From IMG/VR virus record IMGVR_UViG_2660238524_000005: DNA of 47,221 nt. One strand, written 5' to 3'. Both the position numbers and the translations under genes were made by a program. Below the pieces are notes generated by a model, which was not told where the DNA came from, ran no database searches, and was given only the letters and a program-made list of their open reading frames with translations. Each line of letters opens with the position of its first letter. Positions within the stretch are counted from its first letter, which is position 1. Of the stretch, positions 3,553 to 19,178 are shown piece by piece. This DNA comes from a virus. Lineage: Duplodnaviria > Heunggongvirae > Uroviricota > Caudoviricetes.

Positions 3553-4737
3553 CTAACCGGTTTTAATTTCTCCATGAGGGACAACAATCCAATCTATATG
3601 ATTTTTAGTATAAATTTTAGTAGATTTCGCATCGCTATGTGCCATTCGTCCCTGCGGATCAATCCCTTGTTTATCAAATAGGTGAGCTGCCAAAGCTCTT
3701 ATTTCATGGAATGTAGGTCTTTGTTCCATTGCTAGATGATTGCATAGTCCGAGTTTGTCTCGCACGGAAGAGAATGACCGACTCAAATAATCTGGTGCAA
3801 CTTGAGTTGGGTGCGAAACCTCTTTACTGCGTTTAACATGCCGTTCTGGGATTCTATGAACGACAAAGGGACTGGCCACATTGTCACGGCTATTGTCAAT
3901 TATCCGTTTCAATTCTTCACCAATTGGTATTGCAACATGTGATGCCTCCTTTTTTTGTACTTTTTGCCTATGGATGTATAGTGTACCATATATGCCATTT
4001 TGTGGTTGTTCGAACCAAACACATCCACATAAACCGTCTTTAGGTTCGCGAATTGAGTAACGGATTCGCGATACTTCGAGTCGTGCATGTGTAGTCTGCA
4101 ATGCTAGGTCCATTGCTGTTCTTAACCATGGTGCAGCGGCCTGCCTGATAGCTATAAAATGCTCGAGTGACAGGCGCCGTCTTTTCTTCTCATCAGTCCT
4201 ACGCATTTTTTTTCTGATGGCCGGGTTATCCTGCATTAGTGATTCATCGACCGCATAAGAGAACAACTTTTTAAGAAAGCTGACCTTTCTGTTCTGCACA
4301 TTTGCGGATGCGCTGGCATGATATTTGTTGATGTAGGCATTAACGTGTTCAAGTTCGATATCGCATGCCGGAACATTTACGAAAAACGCTTTTACGCGTA
4401 GAGCGTCATTTTTCCAGTCATCTAAGGTACTCTGGGAAGGTCGTTCGTCTTCGATAATTCTGGCCATTATGTGATCGACATGTTCAGCAAATGGTTTTGC
4501 TTCTCCGGTGACCCCGCCAGATTCTCTAATAAGATTATCCACTGATGGGTATAATTCTGATCGCATCCTCAGGTTGTACTCTCTGGCGATTGCAACGGCT
4601 ATTGCCCGATCCTTACCTATATTTTTCTTTTTTCCGGTAATAAGTGTGAATTTATAAACACCTCGATCTTTATCAAAAACCAGATAATCAGGAAGATGTC
4701 TGTATTCTTTTTTACGTGGCCTTGCCGCCATGGTCAT
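3553..4737 (-). CDS. int: Phage integrase (tyrosine recombinase)
   Basis: 394 aa; C-terminal catalytic region with conserved H-x-x-R and terminal Tyr context (...HEIRALAAHLF...AHSDAKSTKIYTK); adjacent to att core and overlapped by xis. Confidence 0.9.
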   Translation of the reverse strand: MTMAARPRKKEYRHLPDYLVFDKDRGVYKFTLITGKKKNIGKDRAIAVAIAREYNLRMRSELYPSVDNLIRESGGVTGEAKPFAEHVDHIMARIIEDERPSQSTLDDWKNDALRVKAFFVNVPACDIELEHVNAYINKYHASASANVQNRKVSFLKKLFSYAVDESLMQDNPAIRKKMRRTDEKKRRRLSLEHFIAIRQAAAPWLRTAMDLALQTTHARLEVSRIRYSIREPKDGLCGCVWFEQPQNGIYGTLYIHRQKVQKKEASHVAIPIGEELKRIIDNSRDNVASPFVVHRIPERHVKRSKEVSHPTQVAPDYLSRSFSSVRDKLGLCNHLAMEQRPTFHEIRALAAHLFDKQGIDPQGRMAHSDAKSTKIYTKNHIDWIVVPHGEIKTG

Positions 4738-7486: not shown

Positions 7487-8144
7487 TTTGCTGCTCCTCA
7501 TCATATCGACCCTGTAAGGTCGGTTAGTTTCTCCACAAAACAGAGAAGAACACCTGCGGTGGCAGCCGCCCGGATGGATTGGGTTATGAGCCCGTCGTCC
7601 GGTGATGCTCTTCTCTGTTTTGTAAAAAGAGCGGTACCAGCCGGAAGCAAGGGTACAAACTGGTACCGCCAAAGCAGTGGCTGTTGTGGTGGGGTTGTCA
7701 CTCAGGCGTATGGTCAACCTGACAATCCGGTGTCCTCAACGGGGAAAGAGTAACCCCGCCATACTTACCGCCGCGCCATTTCGCGGATTACCACAACGCT
7801 GAGAGCACTTAGCCAGTTACAGCACCACACTTTGTCGCGGCTCCATAAATGCCCTCATCGTTGCACCCTGGTCTCTTCCCAGGCGTCAAACCGAATCGCC
7901 ACGCTGGTTAGGCGTCTTATCAGCATCATCATTGACTTGCACATTCCGGCTACCTGGTTTGTTTGCCCGAGCAAGGAGTGGATTGTCCCCTTTAACGTCC
8001 CCAGACCGCTAACGACGCATGTGCCATACGCCGTGTTACAACCAAATTTTGTTAGTACCTTGTTTGTTTGTCTGGAAAGAAAGATAAAATGAAGTTGCGC
8101 ATTATGCAAGTGTTTTTGTTGCGAGATATGCAATTTAAAGGGTA

Positions 8145-8168
8145 ATGAAAAGCCACCTTTGGGTGGCT
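8145..8168 (-). terminator. Intrinsic terminator downstream of cI (minus strand)
   Basis: GCCACC ttt GGGTGGC hairpin with T-run on the minus strand, about 20 nt after cI stop. Confidence 0.45.
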
Positions 8169-8188
8169 AATTGATGAGGAGGTAAGGG

Positions 8189-8881
8189 TTAATTGTGTCG
8201 CTTAAGGGTTTGTGACTGGCTGATTAAGACCTTTCCAAAGACCATAAACCGGTGTTCATTTTCGCTGGTAATTCCCCATTCACGGTAAATCTGGTTATCA
8301 GAAATCACCAGTAGTTTGTCAGGTATCATTTGCAGTCGTTTGACATAAATTTTATCATCAAAACCAAATACATAGATACCATCTCCATCAAACTGATTGA
8401 TACTGACATCAACGAAGATGAGATCTCCTGGCTCAATGGTTGGACACATACTGTCCCCACGAACGTTGATAACTTTAATGTGATTGGCTGGCCGTCCGCC
8501 AAACATCGATACAGCATTATCAGTTCTGTATTCAATGGCATGAATCACATCAATGACATCACCGCCCTGGATAAGGCCATTTCCCGCACTGGCACTGACA
8601 TCCAGCATTTCAATACGGAATACATCCTTCACCTGCGCAACATCCTCACTAATACTGTTTTTACATACAGTATTACTTTTGACGTCTGAGGTAAAGAGAT
8701 CTGCAATATCAACACCTAAGCTCCTGGCAATATTACTCAGGGCTTGTTCAGTGAATTGTTTCTGCTTACCTGTTTCCAGGCGTGAGATATTCGCCGCATC
8801 CACTCCTATTGCTTCAGCGAGATCGGCGATTTTCATGTTCTTCGCCTGGCGAAGTTGTCTGACTCGGTTTCCTATGTTCAT
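8189..8881 (-). CDS. cI: CI-like repressor (XRE HTH + S24 LexA-type autopeptidase)
   Basis: N-terminal HTH (VRQLRQAKNMKIADLAEAIGVDAANISRLETG) and C-terminal S24 motifs (GDSMCPTIEPGDLIFVD...VKRL); divergent from cro. Confidence 0.9.
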   Translation of the reverse strand: MNIGNRVRQLRQAKNMKIADLAEAIGVDAANISRLETGKQKQFTEQALSNIARSLGVDIADLFTSDVKSNTVCKNSISEDVAQVKDVFRIEMLDVSASAGNGLIQGGDVIDVIHAIEYRTDNAVSMFGGRPANHIKVINVRGDSMCPTIEPGDLIFVDVSINQFDGDGIYVFGFDDKIYVKRLQMIPDKLLVISDNQIYREWGITSENEHRFMVFGKVLISQSQTLKRHN

Positions 8882-8978
8882 GCGTTTATTACATTTCTTT
8901 ATTGCGTGTTAAGCAAATCAACTTGCGCAAAATATTTGCGTGAAATAATATGCTCATCACGCAATATGTGGAGGTAAT
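8882..8978. promoter_or_regulatory. Divergent cI/cro promoter-operator region
   Basis: 97-bp interval between divergent starts with four copies of TTGCG(T/C)G half-site, including palindrome TTGCGCAA and inverted pair TTGCGTGA...TCACGCAA. Confidence 0.6.
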
Positions 8979-9239
8979 ATGCAATCACCATTACGGAATG
9001 TGCGTAAGGCGCACGGATTTACTTTGCAGCATGTTGCTGCTGGCGTTCAGGTCAATCCAGCGACGCTGAGTCGTATTGAAAGACTGGAACAAGTTCCATC
9101 TATCGATCTTGCAGAACGTCTGGCCAATTTTTTTAAGGGTGAAATCAGCGAAATGCAGATTCTTTATCCGGCACGTTTTCAATCTAGCCAAAACCAGAAT
9201 GGGTTTAAACCACAGGAACAGGAGGTAAGCCGTGGGTAA
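8979..9239 (+). CDS. cro: Cro-like HTH regulator
   Basis: 86 aa, HTH (HGFTLQHVAAGVQVNPATLSRIER); SD GGAGG upstream. Confidence 0.8.
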   Translation: MQSPLRNVRKAHGFTLQHVAAGVQVNPATLSRIERLEQVPSIDLAERLANFFKGEISEMQILYPARFQSSQNQNGFKPQEQEVSRG

Positions 9240-9783
9240 TCATCACTGGAAAGTGGAAAAACAGCCTGAGTGGTACGTGAAAGCTGTCAGAAAAACTATC
9301 GCAAAGTTGCCGGGTGGTTACGCTGAAGCAGCTGACTGGCTGGATGTAACAGAGAACGCATTATTTAACCGCCTTCGTGCCGATGGCGATCAGATTTTCC
9401 CGCTGGGATGGGCAATGATTTTGCAACGTGCTGGTGGAACTCACTTCATTGCTGACGCTGTGGCGCAGTCTGCAAATGGCGTCTTTGTGTCTCTTCCTGA
9501 CGTCGAGGATGTGGACAACGCCGATATTAACCAGCGCCTGCTGGAAGTCATTGAACAGATCGGCAGTTATTCAAAACAGATTCGTTCAGCAATTGAAGAC
9601 GGTGTAGTGGAACCGAATGAGAAGACAGCAATTAACGACGAGCTGTACCTCTCAATTTCGAAGCTGCAGGAGCATGCAGCACTGGTCTACAAAATTTTTT
9701 GCATTTCAGAAAGTAATGACGCCCGCGAGTGTGCAGCTCCGGGCGCCGTGGCGTGTCGTGACTGTGGAGAAACTAACGCATGA
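9232..9783 (+). CDS. Early regulatory protein (CII/YdaT-like position)
   Basis: 183-aa ORF immediately after cro; assignment by position and vague resemblance only. Confidence 0.35.
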
Positions 9784-10118
9784 ACAGTTTAACAACACAC
9801 TACCGTCGCTCGCAACTGATTGCGCTTCCTGTACCGGGTGGAAAAGCGAAGGTGGAGTATTGCTATGCAGTAAATGTACTAGGTGACAGGGAAATTGTAA
9901 CCCACAGCTTTGCAGAGTGGGCTGTGGGTGATTTCAACCGGCAGAAGGAGACAGTCCTTTGCGACAAGTTAACCGCTGGTTCAAAGATCACTACGGAGTG
10001 CCCGTCAGAGTCATTCGTTGGGAGCCGGAAACACAACGGGTTATCTACCTCCGCGAAGGCTATGAGCATGAGTGCTTCAGCCCGCTCGAACAGTTTCGTC
10101 GTAAATTCAGGGAAGTAG
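9780..10118 (+). CDS. Hypothetical protein; 3' half overlaps an alternative-frame small ORF
   Basis: ATG with SD GGAG 8 nt upstream; C-terminal 50 aa low-complexity ([10 protein letters not shown]). Confidence 0.3.
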
Positions 10119-10138
10119 AGGTCGGTCATGAGCACTAA
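9959..10138 (+). CDS. Small ORF (59 aa, TTG start) not in the supplied track
   Basis: SD AAGGAG 9 nt upstream of TTG; translation [59 protein letters not shown]; stop overlaps start of the replication gene. Confidence 0.35.
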
Positions 10139-11099
10139 ATTAACCGGCTATGTATGGGATGGTTGCGCTGCATCAGGCATGAAATTATCCAGCGTGGCAA
10201 TTATGGCCCGCCTGGCTGATTTCAGTAATGACGAAGGTGTGTGCTGGCCATCAATTGAAACCATTGCCCGTCAGATTGGCGCGGGGATGAGTACCGTCAG
10301 AACGGCTATCGCACGGCTGGAAGCAGAAGGCTGGTTAACGCGTAAGGCGCGTCGCCAGGGTAACCGCAATGCGTCGAATGTTTATCAGCTTAACGTTGCG
10401 AAGCTTCAGGCAGCGGCATTTTCTCAACTGTCAGATTCTGACCCGTCAAAATCTGACGCATCAAAATCTGACGCATCAAAATCTGACGCATCAAAATCTG
10501 ACCCGTCAAAATTTGATGCGTCGAAATCTGGCAAAAAAGCGGGTTTTCACCCGTCAGAATCTGGCGGGGATCCGTCAGTAAAATCAAAACATGATCCGTC
10601 AGATAAAAAACCTTCTCGTCCGGACGCTTCGCAACCGGACACGCAGACGGCTGAACAGGATTTTTTAACTCGCCATCCTGATGCGGTTGTATTCAGCCCT
10701 AAAAAGCGCCAGTGGGGGACGCAGGATGATTTGACCTGCGCACAGTGGCTCTGGAAAAAAATCATCGCCCTGTACGAGCAGGCTGCCGAATGTGACGGCG
10801 AGGTGGTTCGTCCCAAAGAACCGAACTGGACAGCCTGGGCAAACGAAATTCGCCTGATGTGTGTGCAGGATGGTCGTACTCACAAACAAATCTGCGAGAT
10901 GTACAGCCGCGTCAGCCGCGATCCGTTCTGGTGCCGTAACGTGCTCAGCCCGTCGAAGCTGCGGGAAAAATGGGATGAGCTTTCTCTGCGCTTATCGCCG
11001 TCCGTCAGCACGTACACAGAAAAACGCGAAGACCCGTACTTCAAAGCCAGTTACGACAATGTGGACTACAGCCAGATCCCGGCAGGATTCAGGGGGTGA
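10128..11099 (+). CDS. Replication initiation protein (lambda O-like, iteron-containing)
   Basis: N-terminal winged-helix region; internal tandem repeat encoding SKSDA units; position after cro/cII-like genes. Confidence 0.7.
   Translation: MSTKLTGYVWDGCAASGMKLSSVAIMARLADFSNDEGVCWPSIETIARQIGAGMSTVRTAIARLEAEGWLTRKARRQGNRNASNVYQLNVAKLQAAAFSQLSDSDPSKSDASKSDASKSDASKSDPSKFDASKSGKKAGFHPSESGGDPSVKSKHDPSDKKPSRPDASQPDTQTAEQDFLTRHPDAVVFSPKKRQWGTQDDLTCAQWLWKKIIALYEQAAECDGEVVRPKEPNWTAWANEIRLMCVQDGRTHKQICEMYSRVSRDPFWCRNVLSPSKLREKWDELSLRLSPSVSTYTEKREDPYFKASYDNVDYSQIPAGFRG
10431..10567. repeat. Iteron array (candidate ori) inside the replication initiator gene
   Basis: About 8 direct 15-bp repeats of TCAAAATCTGACGCA (3 perfect, others 1-4 mismatches). 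Confidence 0.65.
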
Positions 11100-11101
11100 T
11101 C

Positions 11102-11590
11102 ATGAGTCTTTTGAATGAAGTTCAGAAATTCATTGAAGCCCATCCGGGGTGTACTTCCGGAGACATTGCGGATGCTTTTGCAGGTTACTCACGGCAGCGC
11201 GTTCTGCAGTCAGCAAGCAAGTTACGTCAGAGTGGGCGTGTGGCTCACCGTTGTGAAGGGGATACACGCAGACATTTCCCGCGCCAGACAAAGATATCGC
11301 CGGAGGCGGAACGGCAACCAGTTCGTGAAACCAGACCTGTGCGCAATTTCTATGTCGGCACTAACGACCCGCGGGAGATTTTATGCCTGACCCGCCAGGC
11401 TGAAGAACTGGAGTCCAGGGGCTTATACCGTCGTGCTGCAACGGTGTGGATGGCGGCATTCCGTGAAAGCCACTCCCAGCCAGAACGAAACAATTTTCTG
11501 GCGCGTCGTGAGCAGTGTTTACGGAAAAGCAGCAAGCGCGCTGTATCGGGTGATGAGTGGTATCTGTCAGGGAATTACGTGGGGGCTTAA
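11102..11590 (+). CDS. Putative transcriptional regulator (winged-helix N-terminus, PerC/ANR-like C-terminus)
   Basis: ATG with SD AGGGGG; C-terminal ...GLYRRAATVWMAAFRES... resembles PerC-family motif (from memory). Confidence 0.4.
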   Translation: MSLLNEVQKFIEAHPGCTSGDIADAFAGYSRQRVLQSASKLRQSGRVAHRCEGDTRRHFPRQTKISPEAERQPVRETRPVRNFYVGTNDPREILCLTRQAEELESRGLYRRAATVWMAAFRESHSQPERNNFLARREQCLRKSSKRAVSGDEWYLSGNYVGA

Positions 11591-12243
11591 TGAGTAATAA
11601 ATATTGCCAGGAGCTGGTGGAACTGCGGAACAAACCAGCCCATGAACTGAAGGAAGTGGGCGATCAGTGGCGCACGCCGGACAACATTTTCTGGGGAATT
11701 AACACCCTGTTTGGTCCGTTTGTTCTGGATCTGTTCACTGACGGTGATAACGCCAAATGTGCTGCGTATTACACGGCGGAAGACAACGCGCTGGCGCATG
11801 ACTGGTCAGAACGCCTTGCGGAGCTTAAAGGTGCTGCCTTTGGAAATCCCCCATACAGCCGCGCCAGTCAGCATGAGGGGCAATACATCACCGGCATGCG
11901 TTACATCATGAAGCATGCCAGTGCCATGCGTGATAAGGGCGGGCGCTATGTTTTCCTGATCAAAGCTGCCACCAGCGAAGTGTGGTGGCCGGAAGATGCA
12001 GATCATATTGCTTTTATTCGCGGGCGTATTGGTTTTGAACTGCCTGCCTGGTTTATCCCGAAGGATGAGAAGCAGGTGCCGACAGGCGCTTTCTTCGCTG
12101 GTGCTATTGCTGTTTTCGACAAGACCTGGAAGGGACCGGCAATCAGCTACATCGGGCGCGATGAACTTGAGGCATGTGGTGAGGCGTTTCTGGCGCAGGT
12201 TCGCCTGCAGGCGGAAAAGCTGGTCAGGGAGATGGCGGCATGA
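11590..12243 (+). CDS. Phage Dam-type N6-adenine DNA methyltransferase
   Basis: Catalytic motif FGNPPYS; size and architecture of phage Dam (pfam05869-like). Confidence 0.8.
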   Translation: MSNKYCQELVELRNKPAHELKEVGDQWRTPDNIFWGINTLFGPFVLDLFTDGDNAKCAAYYTAEDNALAHDWSERLAELKGAAFGNPPYSRASQHEGQYITGMRYIMKHASAMRDKGGRYVFLIKAATSEVWWPEDADHIAFIRGRIGFELPAWFIPKDEKQVPTGAFFAGAIAVFDKTWKGPAISYIGRDELEACGEAFLAQVRLQAEKLVREMAA

Positions 12244-12566
12244 CGACGTTAACTCAATGCCAGCAGCAGGTGCTGGATATGCTGATTTCTTATCAGAAAG
12301 AGCGTGGCTTCCCGCCAACCAATCAGGAGGTGGCAACCATGCTGGGATACCGTTCGGTGAATGCAGCGGTGGAGCATCTTCGCGCACTGGAGAAAAAAGG
12401 CGTCATCACGATAAAGCGTGGTGTGGCCCGGGGGATCACGCTTCATACCGCGGTGAAGGACGACGACAGCAAGGCGGTCGGGATTATCCGCTCACTGCTT
12501 GCCGGTGAGGAAAACGCAAGGCTGCGTGCAACTCACTGGTTACATGAGAGAGGCCTGAAAGTATGA
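12240..12566 (+). CDS. LexA N-terminal DNA-binding-domain homolog lacking the S24 peptidase domain
   Basis: MTTLTQCQQQVLDMLISYQKERGFPPTNQEVATMLGYRSVNAAVEHLRALEKKGVI aligns by eye with E. coli LexA residues 1-70; only 108 aa. Confidence 0.6.
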   Translation: MTTLTQCQQQVLDMLISYQKERGFPPTNQEVATMLGYRSVNAAVEHLRALEKKGVITIKRGVARGITLHTAVKDDDSKAVGIIRSLLAGEENARLRATHWLHERGLKV

Positions 12567-12952
12567 AGCTGATCCTGCCTTTCCCGCCCAGCGTGAACAC
12601 CTACTGGCGACACCCCAACAAAGGGGCATTTGCTGGTAAGAGCCTGATAAGCGCGGCGGGGCGAAAATTTCAGAGCGCGGCGTGCGCAGCAATAGTTGAG
12701 CAGTTACGTCGTCTGCCAAAACCAACGTCGGCACCTGCTTCAGTGGAGATCGTGTTGTTTCCTCCGGATAACCGGATCCGCGATCTGGACAACTATAACA
12801 AGGCGCTGTTTGACGCCCTGACCCACGCGGGTGTGTGGGAAGACGACAGACAGGTGAAAAGAATGCTGGTGGAGTGGGGACCGGTTATCCCGAAAGGGAA
12901 GGTCGAGATCACTATCAGTAAGTATGAGAAACCGGCGGGTGCAGCCGCCTGA
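12563..12952 (+). CDS. rusA: RusA Holliday-junction resolvase
   Basis: MKLILPFPPSVNTYW...DLDNYNKALFDAL signature of the RusA family. Confidence 0.9.
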   Translation: MKLILPFPPSVNTYWRHPNKGAFAGKSLISAAGRKFQSAACAAIVEQLRRLPKPTSAPASVEIVLFPPDNRIRDLDNYNKALFDALTHAGVWEDDRQVKRMLVEWGPVIPKGKVEITISKYEKPAGAAA

Positions 12953-12971
12953 TTAAGAGGAGAAACGAAGT

Positions 12972-13781
12972 ATGAATAATCTGATGGTTATTGATGGTAT
13001 TGAAGTTCGTCGTGATGCTTATGGGCGTTACAGCCTGAACGATCTGCACAGGGCAGCCGGGGGAGAACAAAAAAACCGCCCGAAATACTGGCTCTCCAAT
13101 AAGCAAACCTGTGAATTGATTGAACAACTTTTCACCGAGGGTGGAATTCCGCCTCTGGAACAAAATCAACCAGTTAGCGTCATTAATGGCGGAAATAACC
13201 AGGGGACGTATGTCTGCAAAGAACTGGTGTATGCCTATGCAATGTGGATCAGCCCGTCATTCCATCTGAAGGTGATCCGTACTTTCGATATGGTAACCAG
13301 CACACCGGAAAAATTATCCGGGCAGGCTGCTGACAAGATGCAGGCTGGCGTGATTCTGCTGGACTTTATGCGCCGGGAGTTAAACCTGTCTAACTCTTCA
13401 GTGCTTGGTGCCTGTCAGAAACTCCAGGAGGCTGTTGGCTTACCGAATCTGGCACCGCGCTATGCCATTGATGCTCCTGCTGACGCGCCTGATGGCTCAA
13501 GCCGCCCGACGCTGGCGCTGAGTGCACTGCTGAAGCAGTATGGTATCCGCCTGACGGCTAATCAGGCATATCACCAGATGGCGAAGCTGGGGATCGTTGA
13601 ACAACGCGAACGATACAGCCGTACCGCAATTAACAACATTAAAAAATTCTGGTCGCTGACGGCGAAAGGCTGCATGTTCGGCAAGAACATCACCAGTCCT
13701 GCAAATCCGCGTGAGACGCAGCCGCATTTCTTCGAATCCCGATTCCCTGAGCTGTTAAAGCTGCTCGATACCGTTCATTGA
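12972..13781 (+). CDS. KilA-N domain protein
   Basis: N-terminal KilA-N-like segment (DGIEVRRDAYGRYSLNDLHRA...YVCKELVYAYAMWISPSFHLKVI). Confidence 0.7.
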   Translation: MNNLMVIDGIEVRRDAYGRYSLNDLHRAAGGEQKNRPKYWLSNKQTCELIEQLFTEGGIPPLEQNQPVSVINGGNNQGTYVCKELVYAYAMWISPSFHLKVIRTFDMVTSTPEKLSGQAADKMQAGVILLDFMRRELNLSNSSVLGACQKLQEAVGLPNLAPRYAIDAPADAPDGSSRPTLALSALLKQYGIRLTANQAYHQMAKLGIVEQRERYSRTAINNIKKFWSLTAKGCMFGKNITSPANPRETQPHFFESRFPELLKLLDTVH

Positions 13782-13782
13782 G

Positions 13783-14778
13783 GTGACCGTGAGAGCGCTA
13801 CTGACCCCTGAAATTGCCCCGCGTATGGGGATCGTATTGTTCAGACCCGGTTCAGAGCTGATGCCCCTGTTTATGCAGGGGCGTGTCCTGCTGGAGCCTG
13901 AGCCGGAACATTATTCATCTTTTTCCAGTGGTGCCGTTCCGGCGGCATTACAACCACTGGCGGATGATCCTGCCGTTCGGGCTGTGTTCCGCAATGAGGC
14001 GGTGATCCGTCGTGCTGGTGGCGTGGAATGTCTTGAAAGCTGGTTACTTCGTGAAAAAGGCTGCCAGTGGCCTCATTCCGACTGGCACAGCGAGAACATG
14101 ACCACAATGCGACACGCTCCGGGCGCAATCCGTCTGTGCTGGCACTGCGATAACCAGCTGCGCGATCAGTTCACGGAACGGCTGGAATCAATGGCAACGG
14201 ATAACTGTGCCCGCTGGGTGTTGTCTGTCGTGCGTCGGGATCTCGGTTTTGATGACAGTCACGTTGTGACAATGCCGGAACTGTGCTGGTGGCTGGTTCG
14301 TAATGACCTGGCGGATGCCTTACCGGAAAGTGCAGCCCGTAAGGCACTGAGATTACCGAAGCCTGTTGTGCCGTCTGTCACCCGGGAAAGTGATCTTGTT
14401 CCTTCGGTTCCTGCCACCAGCATCATCCAGGATAAAGCGAAAAAGGTGCTGGCGCTGAAAGTGGAGCCGGAGTCGCCGGAGTCTTTTATGTTACGCCCAA
14501 AACGTCGCCGCTGGGTTAATGAAAAGTACACGCGCTGGGTTAAGACGCAGCCGTGTGCATGTTGTGGAAAGCCCGCCGATGATCCCCACCACCTGATAGG
14601 CCACGGTCAGGGTGGAATGGGTACAAAAGCGCATGACCTTTTTGTGTTGCCTTTGTGCAGAAAGCATCACGACGAGCTGCATGCGGATACCGTGGCATTT
14701 GAAGAGAAGTATGGCTCCCAGCTGGAGCTGATATTTCGTTTTATCGATCGTGCGCTGGCGATTGGTGTGCTGGCCTGA
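13783..14778 (+). CDS. DUF968-family phage protein
   Basis: C-terminal Cys/His cluster CACCGKPADDPHHL...PLCRKHHDELH; GTG start per track. Confidence 0.55.
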   Translation: MTVRALLTPEIAPRMGIVLFRPGSELMPLFMQGRVLLEPEPEHYSSFSSGAVPAALQPLADDPAVRAVFRNEAVIRRAGGVECLESWLLREKGCQWPHSDWHSENMTTMRHAPGAIRLCWHCDNQLRDQFTERLESMATDNCARWVLSVVRRDLGFDDSHVVTMPELCWWLVRNDLADALPESAARKALRLPKPVVPSVTRESDLVPSVPATSIIQDKAKKVLALKVEPESPESFMLRPKRRRWVNEKYTRWVKTQPCACCGKPADDPHHLIGHGQGGMGTKAHDLFVLPLCRKHHDELHADTVAFEEKYGSQLELIFRFIDRALAIGVLA

Positions 14779-14795
14779 TTTTGTGGAGAAAGTTG

Positions 14796-15158
14796 ATGCG
14801 TGATATTCAGATGGTTCTGGAGCGTTGGGGAGCATGGGCGGCGAGTGATAGTTCTGGAGTAGATTATTCGCCTATAGCTGCTGGGTTTAAAGGGCTTCTT
14901 CCCTATACAAGTAAAACACGTCAGGCTTGTTCAGATAGTGATGCATTAATTATTGAAGGTTGTCTTGCTCGTCTAAAGCAAAAAAGGCCGGACGAACATT
15001 CGCTTCTTGTTGCCCATTACCTATTCGGTATCTCTAAAAGAAAGCTCGCCAAGGCTCGTAAAAAGGATGAGAAATTAATACGCATTGAGATACAGATGGC
15101 TGAGGGGTTTATTGATGGCTGCCTTTCAATGCTAGATCTAACATTAGATATGGATTAA
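14796..15158 (+). CDS. Q: Late-gene antiterminator Q (phage 21/DLP12 QuuD-like)
   Basis: MRDIQMVLERWGAWAA...AAGFKGL...; SD GGAGAAAG before ATG 14796. Confidence 0.8.
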   Translation: MRDIQMVLERWGAWAASDSSGVDYSPIAAGFKGLLPYTSKTRQACSDSDALIIEGCLARLKQKRPDEHSLLVAHYLFGISKRKLAKARKKDEKLIRIEIQMAEGFIDGCLSMLDLTLDMD

Positions 15159-15176
15159 TTAAGATGAGAAAGATAC

Positions 15177-15590
15177 CTACACAGTATCTTTCTCAATTTG
15201 TTCAAATTTTGGTAATGGATTTGCTGTACTATTTTTTCCTATATTGATCATTATTTCCACAGTTGCTTCTCGAGAGCGTAGCAGCTTTTGCCTAAACTCA
15301 TCAGTGGTATATTTCGATGCTAATTGCTTATCAATGGTCTCGAGATCTCGGAGGCATTGCTTTCTTTTTGCTGCATCTTCTGGTGATTCAAGTCCATGAC
15401 GTGCAATTACCCAGCAAAGTATATATGTCAGGATTGCCGAAATAAGAGGTATTATTAAATATAGTAATTTCGCAAGGTTTGAATTGGCATCAGGTACGCA
15501 AAATGTTACCAGACCTGACAAAATGATCCCAAAACCGCCAGTAGAGAGGGTTGAAGTGACTGGGCTAGTTGGTTTTTTTTCATCAGACAT
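15177..15590 (-). CDS. Small membrane protein (two predicted TM helices + helical tail)
   Basis: Start ATG overlaps upstream stop (ATGTCTGA); hydrophobic segments GGFGIILSGLVTFCV and LLYLIIPLISAILTYILCWVIA. Confidence 0.55.
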   Translation of the reverse strand: MSDEKKPTSPVTSTLSTGGFGIILSGLVTFCVPDANSNLAKLLYLIIPLISAILTYILCWVIARHGLESPEDAAKRKQCLRDLETIDKQLASKYTTDEFRQKLLRSREATVEIMINIGKNSTANPLPKFEQIEKDTV

Positions 15591-15846
15591 TTGAACTGGT
15601 GCCGTCATTCGTTGCTTCTTCTATCAGTTGAACGATAGTTTTGCTTTTGTCTTTAGGCATGACAATAGTGATTGACCGCTTATCGTTGGTGACTTCATCG
15701 ACAAAAACAAACTCAAACTTACGAACAGGGAATAACCTCCGCCATAGTAAAGCGGATGCAGCGTATGAGAAGCGAAACAGGAGAGGTGATATCATGATCA
15801 CCCCTATCCACATCGCGAGTTCTATGATCTGCTGGGTTAACATCAT
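15583..15846 (-). CDS. Small membrane protein (one predicted TM helix)
   Basis: 87 aa; hydrophobic stretch LAMWIGVIMISPLLF; SD AGGA before ATG. Confidence 0.5.
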   Translation of the reverse strand: MMLTQQIIELAMWIGVIMISPLLFRFSYAASALLWRRLFPVRKFEFVFVDEVTNDKRSITIVMPKDKSKTIVQLIEEATNDGTSSNV

Positions 15847-15852
15847 TCCTGT

Positions 15853-16716
15853 TTAAGCTGGTCGTCTACGTTTAACTTTTTTGATAGCATAACGGTTTGT
15901 TACGCCACGCGCAGTAAATGTTTTTGTTGTTTCTAAATCAACAACATAAAGGTCCTCTTTTGAAAATTGTACTGTTGCAGCCTGAACCTGCGAAAGGAAA
16001 ACATTGTCATCTAGGCTTACTGAATGTTCTTCACCAAGATAATCAATTCGCCATCCCTTATTCCCTTCAAAGTTTACTTGAATGAATCTGACGTTAACCT
16101 CATCAATAGAAACTTCTTTTTCTAGTAAAGTACCACGTGGTAGTGGTTTGATTTCTTCAGTTTCTTCTCCTTCAAGCTTGAGAATCTCTTCTCCATTATC
16201 ATCAGTAATTTTGAAGATCGGGCGCTCTTTACCATCTAGTGGTGCTCTAACTACGTTAACTAAGGCTTGTCGTATTTCGGGATCAGTCACTAACTTTGCA
16301 ACAGCCTCATGACAAATAATTTCTTCTCCATCAAGTTCTAATACTGCTTCTTGTGTGTCGACCTTTCGAGTAACAGAAATAACCTTTCTACTCCCCAATT
16401 GTCGAATCAATGCAAGAGCTGAGCCACCAGCTAATGCACCACCAGCAACAGTGAGTCCAATTGCTTTGGCGACATCGACAGCATGAGGAACTAACTCTTG
16501 CATTGAATAAATAACACCGATTGATCCAGGTGCAGCAGGAGCGGTAACCATCAATTTGACTGTTTCCTGCCCATCATTAAGATTTCGATCCGCCTTTGCA
16601 ATAAGGTCAGCCATAGACCCTATTGATAAACTTAGTGTTTTTGCATCAATCTTATGCTGTGCTAATTCTTCATCTTCGGCATCATAGAAGACTTTGAAAG
16701 TGGTAGAACTATCCAA
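15853..16716 (-). CDS. Hypothetical soluble protein, first gene of reverse-strand cargo operon
   Basis: 287 aa, acidic, no TM segments or recognisable catalytic motifs; AT-rich; opposite to flanking late genes. Confidence 0.6.
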   Translation of the reverse strand: MDSSTTFKVFYDAEDEELAQHKIDAKTLSLSIGSMADLIAKADRNLNDGQETVKLMVTAPAAPGSIGVIYSMQELVPHAVDVAKAIGLTVAGGALAGGSALALIRQLGSRKVISVTRKVDTQEAVLELDGEEIICHEAVAKLVTDPEIRQALVNVVRAPLDGKERPIFKITDDNGEEILKLEGEETEEIKPLPRGTLLEKEVSIDEVNVRFIQVNFEGNKGWRIDYLGEEHSVSLDDNVFLSQVQAATVQFSKEDLYVVDLETTKTFTARGVTNRYAIKKVKRRRPA

Positions 16717-16844
16717 TTTTGCCTCAGTTTATTTTTAATTCTATCCTGTAGACTTAAATTAACGTGAAAGAGATGAAAAATCACTAACGCGGTCCGCATT
16801 TTTTCATTTAGCATGTTAAGAGTGGTTACTTCGCCACACAACTT

Positions 16845-16870
16845 AAACCCGCCGCTGAGCGGTTTTTTTG
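16845..16870 (+). terminator. Weak intrinsic terminator (possible tR'-like element downstream of Q)
   Basis: CCGC cgctga GCGG followed by T7; plus orientation. Confidence 0.35.
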
Positions 16871-16967
16871 TACCTGTAAACCTGGTGCAGTACAGTAAAC
16901 ACGCTGGTTGTCGTGAATACTGACTTTTTATCTTGCTGGCATTTTAGACAAGAGTTATTGGTATGTC

Positions 16968-17195
16968 ATGTTAACCAGAAGGGAAAAAGACATGCTAAAA
17001 CAGCAAGATATGACAGAAACCGCCGCCGCAGTCCTTCATTTCTTACCTGCTGACAAGTGGGTAACGCCACGCATGATGACGAGAACTACCGGAGTAAGCG
17101 AAGCCCGGTGCCAGTTAATACTGACTCAGTTAGTTCTGGCGGGTCTGGCGAAGGATAACGGCGGGTACGGGAATAAATTCAGACGCTGCCAGTAA
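16968..17195 (+). CDS. Small hypothetical protein, possibly winged-helix
   Basis: 75-aa ORF upstream of the methyltransferase; weak call. Confidence 0.3.
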   Translation: MLTRREKDMLKQQDMTETAAAVLHFLPADKWVTPRMMTRTTGVSEARCQLILTQLVLAGLAKDNGGYGNKFRRCQ

Positions 17196-17345
17196 TGGCG
17201 GTTTCCTGCTGTGAAAATGGGCGGCTGGTGGGTGTTGGTAGCACCTGCCAGCCATTCGCTCATGCCTACTGGTCACAAGCGAACCACGGCCCACTGCTTT
17301 AGCGCAAAAGCAGAGTGAGCCTACCAGAGTTACGCTTACTGATCC

Positions 17346-18398
17346 ATGAAAAATACTGTAAAAATAAACAGTGTTGATTTAATCAACGCTGATTGCCTGC
17401 ATTTTATTCAGTCCCTGCCTGATGATTCCATTGACCTGATTGTTACCGATCCGCCTTACTTCAAGGTGAAACCCAACGGCTGGGACAATCAGTGGAAAGG
17501 GGACGAAGATTACCTTAAGTGGCTGGACCACTGTCTGGCCCAGTTCTGGCGGGTGTTGAAACCTGCCGGAAGCCTTTACCTGTTCTGTGGGCATCGCCTG
17601 GCATCTGATATTGAGATCATGATGCGTGAACGTTTCAACGTGCTTAACCATATCATCTGGGCGAAGCCGTCCGGACGTTGGAATGGGTGTAATAAAGAAA
17701 GTCTGCGCGCATATTTTCCTGCCACAGAGCGCGTTCTGTTTGCTGAACATTACCAGGGGCCATATCGCGGCAAAAGTGACGGCTATGCGGCAAAAGAAAG
17801 GGAACTCAAACAGCACATAATGGCACCGCTGATATCGTATTTCAGGGATGCTCGTGCCGAACTGGGTATAACGGCAAAACAAATTGCCGAAGCCACAGGT
17901 AAGAAAAATATGGTTTCCCACTGGTTTGGTGCCAGTCAGTGGCAGTTGCCGAATGAGGCTGACTATCGGAAGTTACAGGCACTGTTTTCCCGTATAGCGG
18001 CAGAGAAGTTTCAGGAACAACAACTGGAACAACCACACCACCAACTGGTGGCATCTTATGATTCACTGAATCGTAAATATTCTGAATTGCTGGATGAGTT
18101 TAAATCTCTCCGGCGCTATTTCTCCGTATCAGTCTCCGTGCCTTATACCGATGTCTGGATGCATAAACCCGTTCAGTTCTACCCGGGTAAACATCCGTGT
18201 GAGAAACCGGCGGATATGCTCAGGCAAATAATCAATGCCAGTAGTCGACCTGGTGATCTGGTTGCTGATTTTTTTATGGGATCCGGTTCCACAATAAAAG
18301 CAGCAATGGCGTTGGGGCGTCGGGCCTTAGGTGTTGAGCTTGAGTCAGAGCGGTTTAACCAGACAGTGAAAGAGATAAACGAGCTGGTGGGGAAATAA
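17346..18398 (+). CDS. DNA methyltransferase (beta-class N6A/N4C, DPPY motif)
   Basis: Motif IV DPPY near N-terminus and motif I FxGSGST near C-terminus; no adjacent restriction enzyme. Confidence 0.85.
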
Positions 18399-18465
18399 TC
18401 TGGTGGCCACGTCAGGTGGCCTTTTTATTTCCATTACACAGCACCCGCATCTGCGAGGTGGGGTT

Positions 18466-18681
18466 ATGAAATCCATGGATAAGTTAACAACGGGTGTCGC
18501 CTATGGCACCTCAGCAGGTAGTGCCGGGTACTGGTTTTTACAGTTGCTCGATAAAGTCACGCCCTCACAGTGGGCGGCAATTGGAGTGCTGGGTAGTCTG
18601 GTATTTGGCTTGCTGACGTATCTGACAAACCTTTATTTCAAGATTAAAGAAGATAAGCGTAAGGCTGCGAGAGGTGAATAA
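18466..18681 (+). CDS. S: Pinholin S21-type holin with dual-start motif
   Basis: [29 protein letters not shown]...[23 protein letters not shown] closely resembles phage 21 S21 (from memory); Met1 and Met4 dual start. Confidence 0.85.
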
Positions 18682-19178
18682 TGTCGCCATCATTACGCAA
18701 GGCTGTTGCTGCTGCTATTGGTGGTGGGGCAATTGCTATAGCATCTGTGTTAATCACTGGCCCAAGTGGTGACGATGGTCTGGAAGGTGTTAGCCACATA
18801 CCATACAAAGATATTGTTGGTGTATGGACTGTATGTTACGGACACACCGGAAAAGACATCATGCTAGGTAAAACGTATACCGAAGCAGAATGCAAAGCCC
18901 TCCTGAATAAAGACCTTGCCACGGTCGCCAGACAAATTAACCCGTACATCAAAGTCGATATACCGGAAACAACGCGCGGCGCTCTTTACTCGTTCGTTTA
19001 CAACGTGGGTGCTGGCAATTTCAGAACATCGACGCTTCTTCGCAAAATAAACCAGGGCGATATCAAAGGCGCATGTGATCAGCTACGTCGCTGGACATAT
19101 GCTGGCGGTAAGCAATGGAAAGGACTGATGACTCGTCGGGAGATTGAGCGTGAAGTCTGTTTGTGGGGGCAGAAATGA
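18681..19178 (+). CDS. R: SAR endolysin (R21-type lysozyme with N-terminal signal-anchor-release domain)
   Basis: Gly/Ala-rich weakly hydrophobic N-terminus [18 protein letters not shown], then lysozyme catalytic region; overlaps holin stop (TAATG). Confidence 0.9.

Follow-up and report, generated by a model that had tools for sequence, protein, structure and literature searches.

A protease-less LexA-type DNA-binding domain with a conserved C-terminal tail in enteric lambdoid prophages is a candidate RecA-insensitive occupant of SOS boxes

What does a prophage gain from a gene that encodes the DNA-binding domain (DBD) of LexA and nothing of the part through which LexA is inactivated? This question is raised by a small gene in the window analysed here, a stretch of 47,221 nucleotides representing a lambdoid prophage of the mEp460/SfV/cdtI type. 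The gene (Table 1) runs from ATG to TGA over 108 codons, has GGAG 8 nt 5' of its start codon, and lies in the nin region, with the replication genes on one side and the antiterminator gene on the other. Both of its junctions are ATGA start/stop overlaps, and the gene is translationally coupled to the Dam-family methylase gene upstream and to the RusA gene downstream. All genes from cro (8979) through Q are on the plus strand, those downstream of cro and cII including PerC-like, replication, KilA-N, DUF968 and Q antiterminator genes, so that the sequence-only reading fairly assigned the gene to the early-right operon; the Pfam matches of both neighbours agree with the position between a Dam methyltransferase and RusA that it had proposed. 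Directly 5' of the Dam gene, with overlapping stop and start codons, is a homologue of the PerC family of transcriptional activators (11096–11590), and the order PerC, Dam, LexA-DBD, RusA was also seen in three Cronobacter prophages. The preceding gene (10128–11099) encodes a replication-initiator-like protein (HTH_36) with at least four tandem SKSDA repeats, and the DNA repeats underlying these motifs are probably origin iterons. Further downstream, Q is separated from the late genes by an insert of three minus-strand genes (15177–16716; 287, 87 and 143 aa). A match to the PADLOC candidate defence family PDC-S42 was obtained for the 287-aa protein (E = 1e-32) and none for the 87- and 143-aa proteins; the insert is probably a prophage-borne defence moron.

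Table 1. Coordinates of the LexA-DBD gene, its parts, its neighbours and the candidate operators in the window.
Feature	Position	Strand	Basis or remark
Candidate operator, perfect palindrome TAATACTGT-N8-ACAGTATTA	8650–8675		26 bp, perfect 9-nt arms
Candidate operator, SOS-box core TACTGTTTTTACATACAGTA	8653–8672		25.3 bits
Dam-family N6-adenine methyltransferase gene	11557–12243	+	PF05869, E = 1.2e-45; stop overlaps LexA-DBD start
LexA-DBD gene, 108 aa, including stop codon	12240–12566	+	ORF, PF01726, PHROG 362
Winged helix-turn-helix domain, residues 1–69	12240–12446	+	AF2 pLDDT ~88; superposition on 3JSO
Turn and recognition helix 3, residues 39–52 (SVNAAVEHLRALEK)	12354–12395	+	
C-terminal helical hairpin (predicted), residues 75–103	12462–12548	+	AF2 and family alignment
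RusA Holliday-junction resolvase gene	12563–12952	+	PF05866, E = 1.3e-14; start overlaps LexA-DBD stop
Q antiterminator gene	14781–15158	+	PF06530
Candidate operator, SOS box TACTGTAAAAATAAACAGTG	17354–17373		22.3 bits; overlaps annotated methylase start codon

Residues 1–65 of the phage protein matched the Pfam family LexA_DNA_bind (PF01726) over all 65 model positions (E = 2.9e-19, 69 bits; cut-off 23.7 bits), and alignment with residues 1–68 of E. coli LexA gave 51% identity with zero gaps, so that the residue numbers of the two proteins coincide. Both results bear out the earlier assignment of the N-terminal ~70 residues to the LexA winged-helix domain. The AF2 model of this part, which comprises helices 6–22, 28–35 and 40–52 and strands 56–58 and 66–68, superimposed on DNA-bound LexA (PDB 3JSO) with 1.1 Å over 68 residues at 50% identity. 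The residues shared with LexA cluster in the DNA-reading parts: 9 of the 14 residues of the turn and helix 3 are the same as in LexA (SPNAAEEHLKALAR), as are 10 of 16 in the wing, compared with 7 of 22 in helix 1 and 3 of 8 in helix 2. The residues with which LexA contacts DNA are Ser39, Asn41, Ala42, Glu44 and Glu45 (PMC3091678). Helix 3 was the place where the sequence-only reading had suggested looking, and here the phage protein keeps four of the five contacts (S39, N41, A42 and E45), the one exception being E44, which is replaced by V; P40 of LexA is likewise V in the phage protein.

The remainder of the protein has no counterpart of the LexA protease. No match to Peptidase_S24 was found in the 108 residues, and 3' of residue 108 the stop codon overlaps the rusA start; the complete lack of this domain had been recognized correctly. 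In LexA the C-terminal S24 domain holds the Ser119/Lys156 dyad and is also the dimerisation domain. With the NCBIfam LexA equivalog TIGR00498 the phage protein scored 70.8 bits, aligning with model positions 1–91 of 203 and falling below the curated cut-off of 110.95 bits. An A88-G89 dipeptide is present, but other family members do not consistently share it, and the protein has no protease core. The protein is thus not a LexA proper by the presence of S24, by cleavage or by score.

The protein was modelled with AF2 on a 41-sequence family alignment (mean pLDDT 83; an AlphaFold model from the single sequence reached a pLDDT of 53 and was discarded). Following a linker of low confidence (residues 72–74), residues 75–103 are predicted to form an amphipathic helical hairpin with helices 75–88 and 93–103 (pLDDT ~87). 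The tail carries a motif found throughout the family, in which A97 and L101 are invariant and A79 and A93 nearly so. Since this motif is conserved across genera at only 38–60% overall identity, the tail is a functional module rather than a leftover, and the hairpin, as seen in a monomer model, may replace the S24 domain as a dimerisation or partner-binding module. No part of LexA showed significant similarity to the tail, the best match being 7 residues with E = 0.37; this match (AVGIIRS in one protein, AVGVIRN in the other) was considered as a possible remnant of the LexA C-terminal strand and rejected as not significant. MAFFT placed the phage SLLAG-E opposite the LexA cleavage region RVAAG-E, and a role of the tail as a cleavage-site mimic, that is, as a trans-substrate or inhibitor of S24 proteases, was considered and dropped because the family does not conserve the Ala-Gly.

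The tail also bears on the idea of the sequence-only reading that the phage protein might heterodimerise with LexA. This idea found no support, since the LexA dimer interface is in the C-terminal domain (PMC10584840), which is missing from the phage protein, and the tail is unlike LexA. Its nearest workable form is a protein that acts mainly through protein contacts, either joining LexA or LexA fragments on DNA or binding a partner with its tail while tethered to DNA. Isolated LexA N-terminal domains reportedly bind operators cooperatively, which together with a tail that is conserved and has no assigned function would fit such a role; we nevertheless consider it improbable, given the absent interface, the dissimilarity of the tail to LexA and the lack of any partner gene that was consistently adjacent to the LexA-DBD gene across genera.

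The gene belongs to a widespread family. Residues 1–108 matched the profile of PHROG 362 over its full length (positions 1–106 of 106, E = 2.1e-59), and the proteins of SfV (e.g. orf42) and mEp460 (mEp460_046) are 97–99% identical to the one in the window. The family is already annotated, by NCBI as 'LexA family transcriptional regulator' and by depositors as 'LexA-like', 'LexA DNA binding domain protein' or 'unknown', the names being given from similarity only; the gene has thus long been known to annotators, and its LexA-like architecture will not surprise specialists. Our search of the literature, with most subscription journals outside its scope, turned up no experimental study of the enteric proteins. 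We found the gene in 61 phage records, including Stx2c, Stx2a and Stx2k converting phages, the Shigella serotype-converting phages SfII, SfIV and SfV, cdtI, mEp460 and 1720a-02, and it is encoded on at least 594 contigs of IMG/VR. Among 5,426 complete E. coli genomes, 2,233 (~40%) carry the gene, in up to four copies each, and the copy in the window is 100% identical to chromosomal copies of E. coli, for example in an O25b:H4 strain. A search of 1.84 billion representatives returned full-length relatives at 38–50% identity, and a profile search returned relatives of ~105–135 aa, none of them with an S24 domain, from Escherichia, Salmonella, Citrobacter, Cronobacter, Klebsiella, Enterobacter, Atlantibacter and Hafnia. 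Across genera the gene order is methyltransferase, LexA-DBD, RusA, Rha/Ant/KilA-N, DUF968 and antiterminator, and the Cronobacter, Salmonella and Klebsiella loci also have the LexA-DBD gene in a prophage nin region; RusA is absent from the Klebsiella loci, and a gene that we call orfX is confined to a Klebsiella/Enterobacter subgroup. Residues invariant in the family are Q8, G23, P26, E30, G36, S39, N41, L50, K53, R64, G65, I66, A97 and L101.

This conservation already contradicts the view that the gene is a decaying and now functionless remnant of a captured lexA gene. The shortness of the protein and the alignment of its Ala-Gly at 88–89 with the LexA cleavage-site region are what such a view can draw on, against the unconserved state of this dipeptide in the family, the translational coupling to both neighbours, an open reading frame that is intact at 95–100% DNA identity in the 2,233 E. 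coli genomes, and full-length relatives at 38–60% identity in at least eight genera, in which positions of the DBD and of the tail alike are invariant. We therefore give the remnant explanation almost no weight.

The recognition helix varies within the family at the two glutamate contacts of LexA. Position 44 was never Glu in the short family. At position 45 the E. coli forms have Glu, as do several Salmonella, the Kosakonia and some Enterobacter and Klebsiella forms; among other Klebsiella, Cronobacter and Citrobacter forms the residue is L, T, A, D, I or G. The SOS box CTGT-N8-ACAG is common to all these enteric hosts. Because residue 45 has changed in subfamilies whose hosts share the same box, reading of the SOS box is not a constant of the whole family. 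This variation, like the conservation of the tail, had been missed by the sequence-only reading, and the loss of E44 together with the change of P40 to V counts against a mimic of LexA. A different explanation accommodates these facts, namely that the protein is a dedicated phage regulator whose LexA fold has been retargeted to a diverged, non-SOS operator of its own, at which it represses or activates, with the tail dimerising the protein or contacting RNA polymerase. The precedent is gp6 of GIL01, a tectivirus of Bacillus thuringiensis, a truncated LexA homologue that is 44% identical to the DBD of the host LexA, binds GaCACAnnTGTGaC, a palindrome that differs from the host LexA box and overlaps the -35 element of a late promoter, and activates this promoter (PMC6182141). 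As gp6 is the sole truncated LexA homologue that has been studied, and as positions 44 and 45 differ among subfamilies of the enteric protein, retargeting deserves to be taken seriously; the protein of the window, however, has the LexA specificity residues S39, N41, A42 and E45, and on balance we hold retargeting, the main rival of a LexA mimic, to be the less likely of the two for it. The gp6 operator is absent from the window even when one mismatch is allowed, and no recurrent palindrome other than the SOS boxes was found in the early and nin region (7500–19000). Moreover, the late genes of lambdoid phages are switched on by Q, which is present here, so that a gp6-like role as a late activator would be unnecessary, though still possible.

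Two strong SOS boxes were found in the window. The LexA-box matrix rests on a set of 26 E. coli boxes from the literature, a caveat that applies to all bit scores given here; the median of these training boxes was 20.3 bits, and none of 200 shuffles scored above 20.7 bits, both of which values are exceeded by the two boxes (25.3 and 22.3 bits). Counts of the exact pattern, which are independent of this matrix, gave 3 occurrences of ACTGT-N8-ACAGT in the window against ~0.05 expected from its length (47,221/4^10). The higher-scoring box is the core of a perfect palindrome within the hinge-coding part (residues NTVCKNS) of a cI-type repressor gene (8189–8881, minus strand; HTH and S24), 15 codons ahead of an internal Met and of a SASAG cleavage-like site. 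The second box is at the start of an N6/N4 DNA methylase gene (17346–18398; PF01555, E = 2e-42) located between Q and the holin gene. None of the promoters passing a consensus scan overlapped the box at 8653–8672 or that at 17354–17373, and by eye the promoter matches at the two boxes reached only 8/12 (on the minus strand at the cI box). For CTGT/ACAG pairs that also extend to ACTGT, the window showed no preference for a spacing other than N8. A perfect 20-bp palindrome, CACTGTGTGCGCAAACAGTG, with the half-sites of an SOS box and a GC-rich spacer (13.8 bits), is present at 451–470 in the left flank, ~3 kb beyond the integrase gene (3553–4737), where the adjoining genes have TPR and DUF2971 matches.

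Both boxes of the window recur in related loci, the methylase-start box in 31 of 80 such loci and on more than 120 IMG/VR contigs. When the 22 related loci with full 10-kb flanks were scanned, 13 contained one or several boxes that reached 20 bits, compared with 0 after shuffling, and the other 9 had no strong SOS box within 10 kb. The boxes are thus real LexA-type operators, and they are candidate targets of the phage protein. Among the contigs that carry the exact methylase-start box and enough upstream sequence, 17 of 21 have the LexA-DBD gene and 4 lack it; with these 4 contigs on one side and the 9 loci without a strong box on the other, we rejected the methylase box and the LexA-DBD gene as a functional pair, and their co-occurrence reflects lineage linkage. 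Because the box persists without the gene and 9 of 22 loci are boxless, host LexA alone suffices to explain the phage boxes, and the many gene-bearing loci without a nearby SOS box are a further point in favour of a retargeted regulator. A comparison of residue-45 type with nearby SOS boxes gave no clean split among 15 loci from different genera, and the Cronobacter cI genes, which were considered as a comparison for the cI-internal box, are of a different immunity type and uninformative. In six sister phages the gap after rusA is longer and holds, ~50 bp after rusA, a hairpin and a third strong SOS box, TACTGTATTTATGAACAGTG, which precedes a variant KilA-N gene by ~85 nt; the position of this box suggests a LexA-controlled KilA-N/antirepressor-like gene adjoining the LexA-DBD gene.

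The family itself is tied to SOS control in the Klebsiella/Enterobacter subgroup, where a box of 21–27 bits, in the same orientation as the gene, heads the run of genes that includes LexA-DBD, 530–700 bp upstream of it. In five Klebsiella loci the order is box, dinI, orfX and LexA-DBD, and in an Enterobacter locus another small gene takes the place of dinI while the box and the orfX–LexA-DBD pair are kept. The product of orfX has ~96 aa and matched no Pfam family. In K. pneumoniae the box overlaps the -10 element of a promoter-like sequence recognized by eye (TTGAAC, 17-nt spacer, TACTGT).

The reading that we prefer, at a probability of about 45%, is that the phage protein is a RecA-insensitive mimic of LexA that occupies SOS-type operators. 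Isolated LexA N-terminal domain keeps some SOS-box binding and repression, and ClpXP degrades the N-terminal fragment after cleavage has exposed its ClpX-recognition motifs, a degradation that is needed for full SOS induction because the N-terminal domain still binds and represses (PMC10584840). As four of the five helix-3 contacts are kept in the phage protein and an isolated LexA N-terminal domain binds, RecA-insensitive occupancy of SOS boxes by the phage protein is plausible. In the mechanism proposed, the phage winged helix would read the same CTGT half-site as host LexA, and the C-terminal hairpin would hold two copies together in place of the S24 domain. Activated RecA would be unable to inactivate the protein, since it has neither a cleavage site nor a protease core. 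The gene would be transcribed from the rightward promoter with the delayed-early genes, and because of its place in this operon its product can be expected to accumulate after prophage induction, when host LexA is already cleaved. It would then shut SOS-type operators of the host regulon again and also, where these are present, those of the phage (cI hinge and methylase start). We infer the DNA specificity of the protein, its dimerisation through the tail, repression, timing and the benefit to the phage. As to the last, one may speculate that the phage gains by shutting off the host SOS response, by limiting its SOS-boxed genes to a short pulse, or by keeping rival prophages from expressing their LexA-controlled elements.

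Prophage induction, that of Shiga-toxin phages included, is driven by the SOS response, as are the mutagenesis seen under antibiotics and the mobility of mobile elements. If the mimic acts as proposed, it would silence host SOS functions and the SOS-boxed genes of its own phage, as well as LexA-controlled antirepressors, colicins or toxins of rival elements that share its cell. In Klebsiella and Enterobacter, where the gene follows an SOS box of its own and usually dinI, this would amount to a prophage-borne negative-feedback module on SOS. The depth and duration of the SOS response would then vary between strains with their prophage content, and co-resident prophages could disturb each other's induction. 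Since the gene is present in Stx2c, Stx2a, Stx2k, SfII, SfIV and SfV phages, any such effect would touch clinically relevant strains. The picture in full, in which about two-fifths of E. coli strains, and many other Enterobacteriaceae as well, have between one and four prophage genes for an uncleavable LexA mimic that re-shuts the SOS regulon regardless of RecA, with negative feedback in Klebsiella and Enterobacter, is a tentative one that we consider rather doubtful as a whole.

Compared with E. coli LexA (PDB 1LEA and 3JSO), the phage protein has the same winged-helix fold and numbering and the same wing residues R64-G65-I66. In contrast to LexA, it has neither the S24 domain nor the Ser/Lys catalytic dyad, the C-terminal domain being replaced by a helical hairpin of ~30 residues; the conserved Ala-Gly cleavage site of LexA has no conserved equivalent in the phage family; and LexA is encoded by an autoregulated chromosomal gene, the phage protein in a prophage operon. 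The N-terminal cleavage fragment of LexA (residues 1–84) resembles the phage protein in being a DBD without the C-terminal domain, but this fragment is transient, whereas the phage gene yields a stable product that ends in ...GLKV and has the conserved tail. The signal by which ClpX recognizes the LexA fragment is its new C-terminal Val-Ala-Ala. Stand-alone LexA DBDs also occur widely outside the enteric family, in phages that include mycobacteriophages, tectiviruses and uncultured Caudovirales. In our representative library, four single-chain proteins have two tandem LexA DBDs and no S24 domain, which would be another route to a two-headed LexA-type binder. The closest parallel is GIL01 gp6, which, like the enteric protein, is encoded by a phage early gene and is essentially a LexA DBD without the protease. 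It comes from another type of phage and another host phylum, its model ends at the wing without a hairpin, whereas the enteric protein has a conserved C-terminal one, and, unlike gp6, the enteric protein keeps the recognition residues of its host's LexA.
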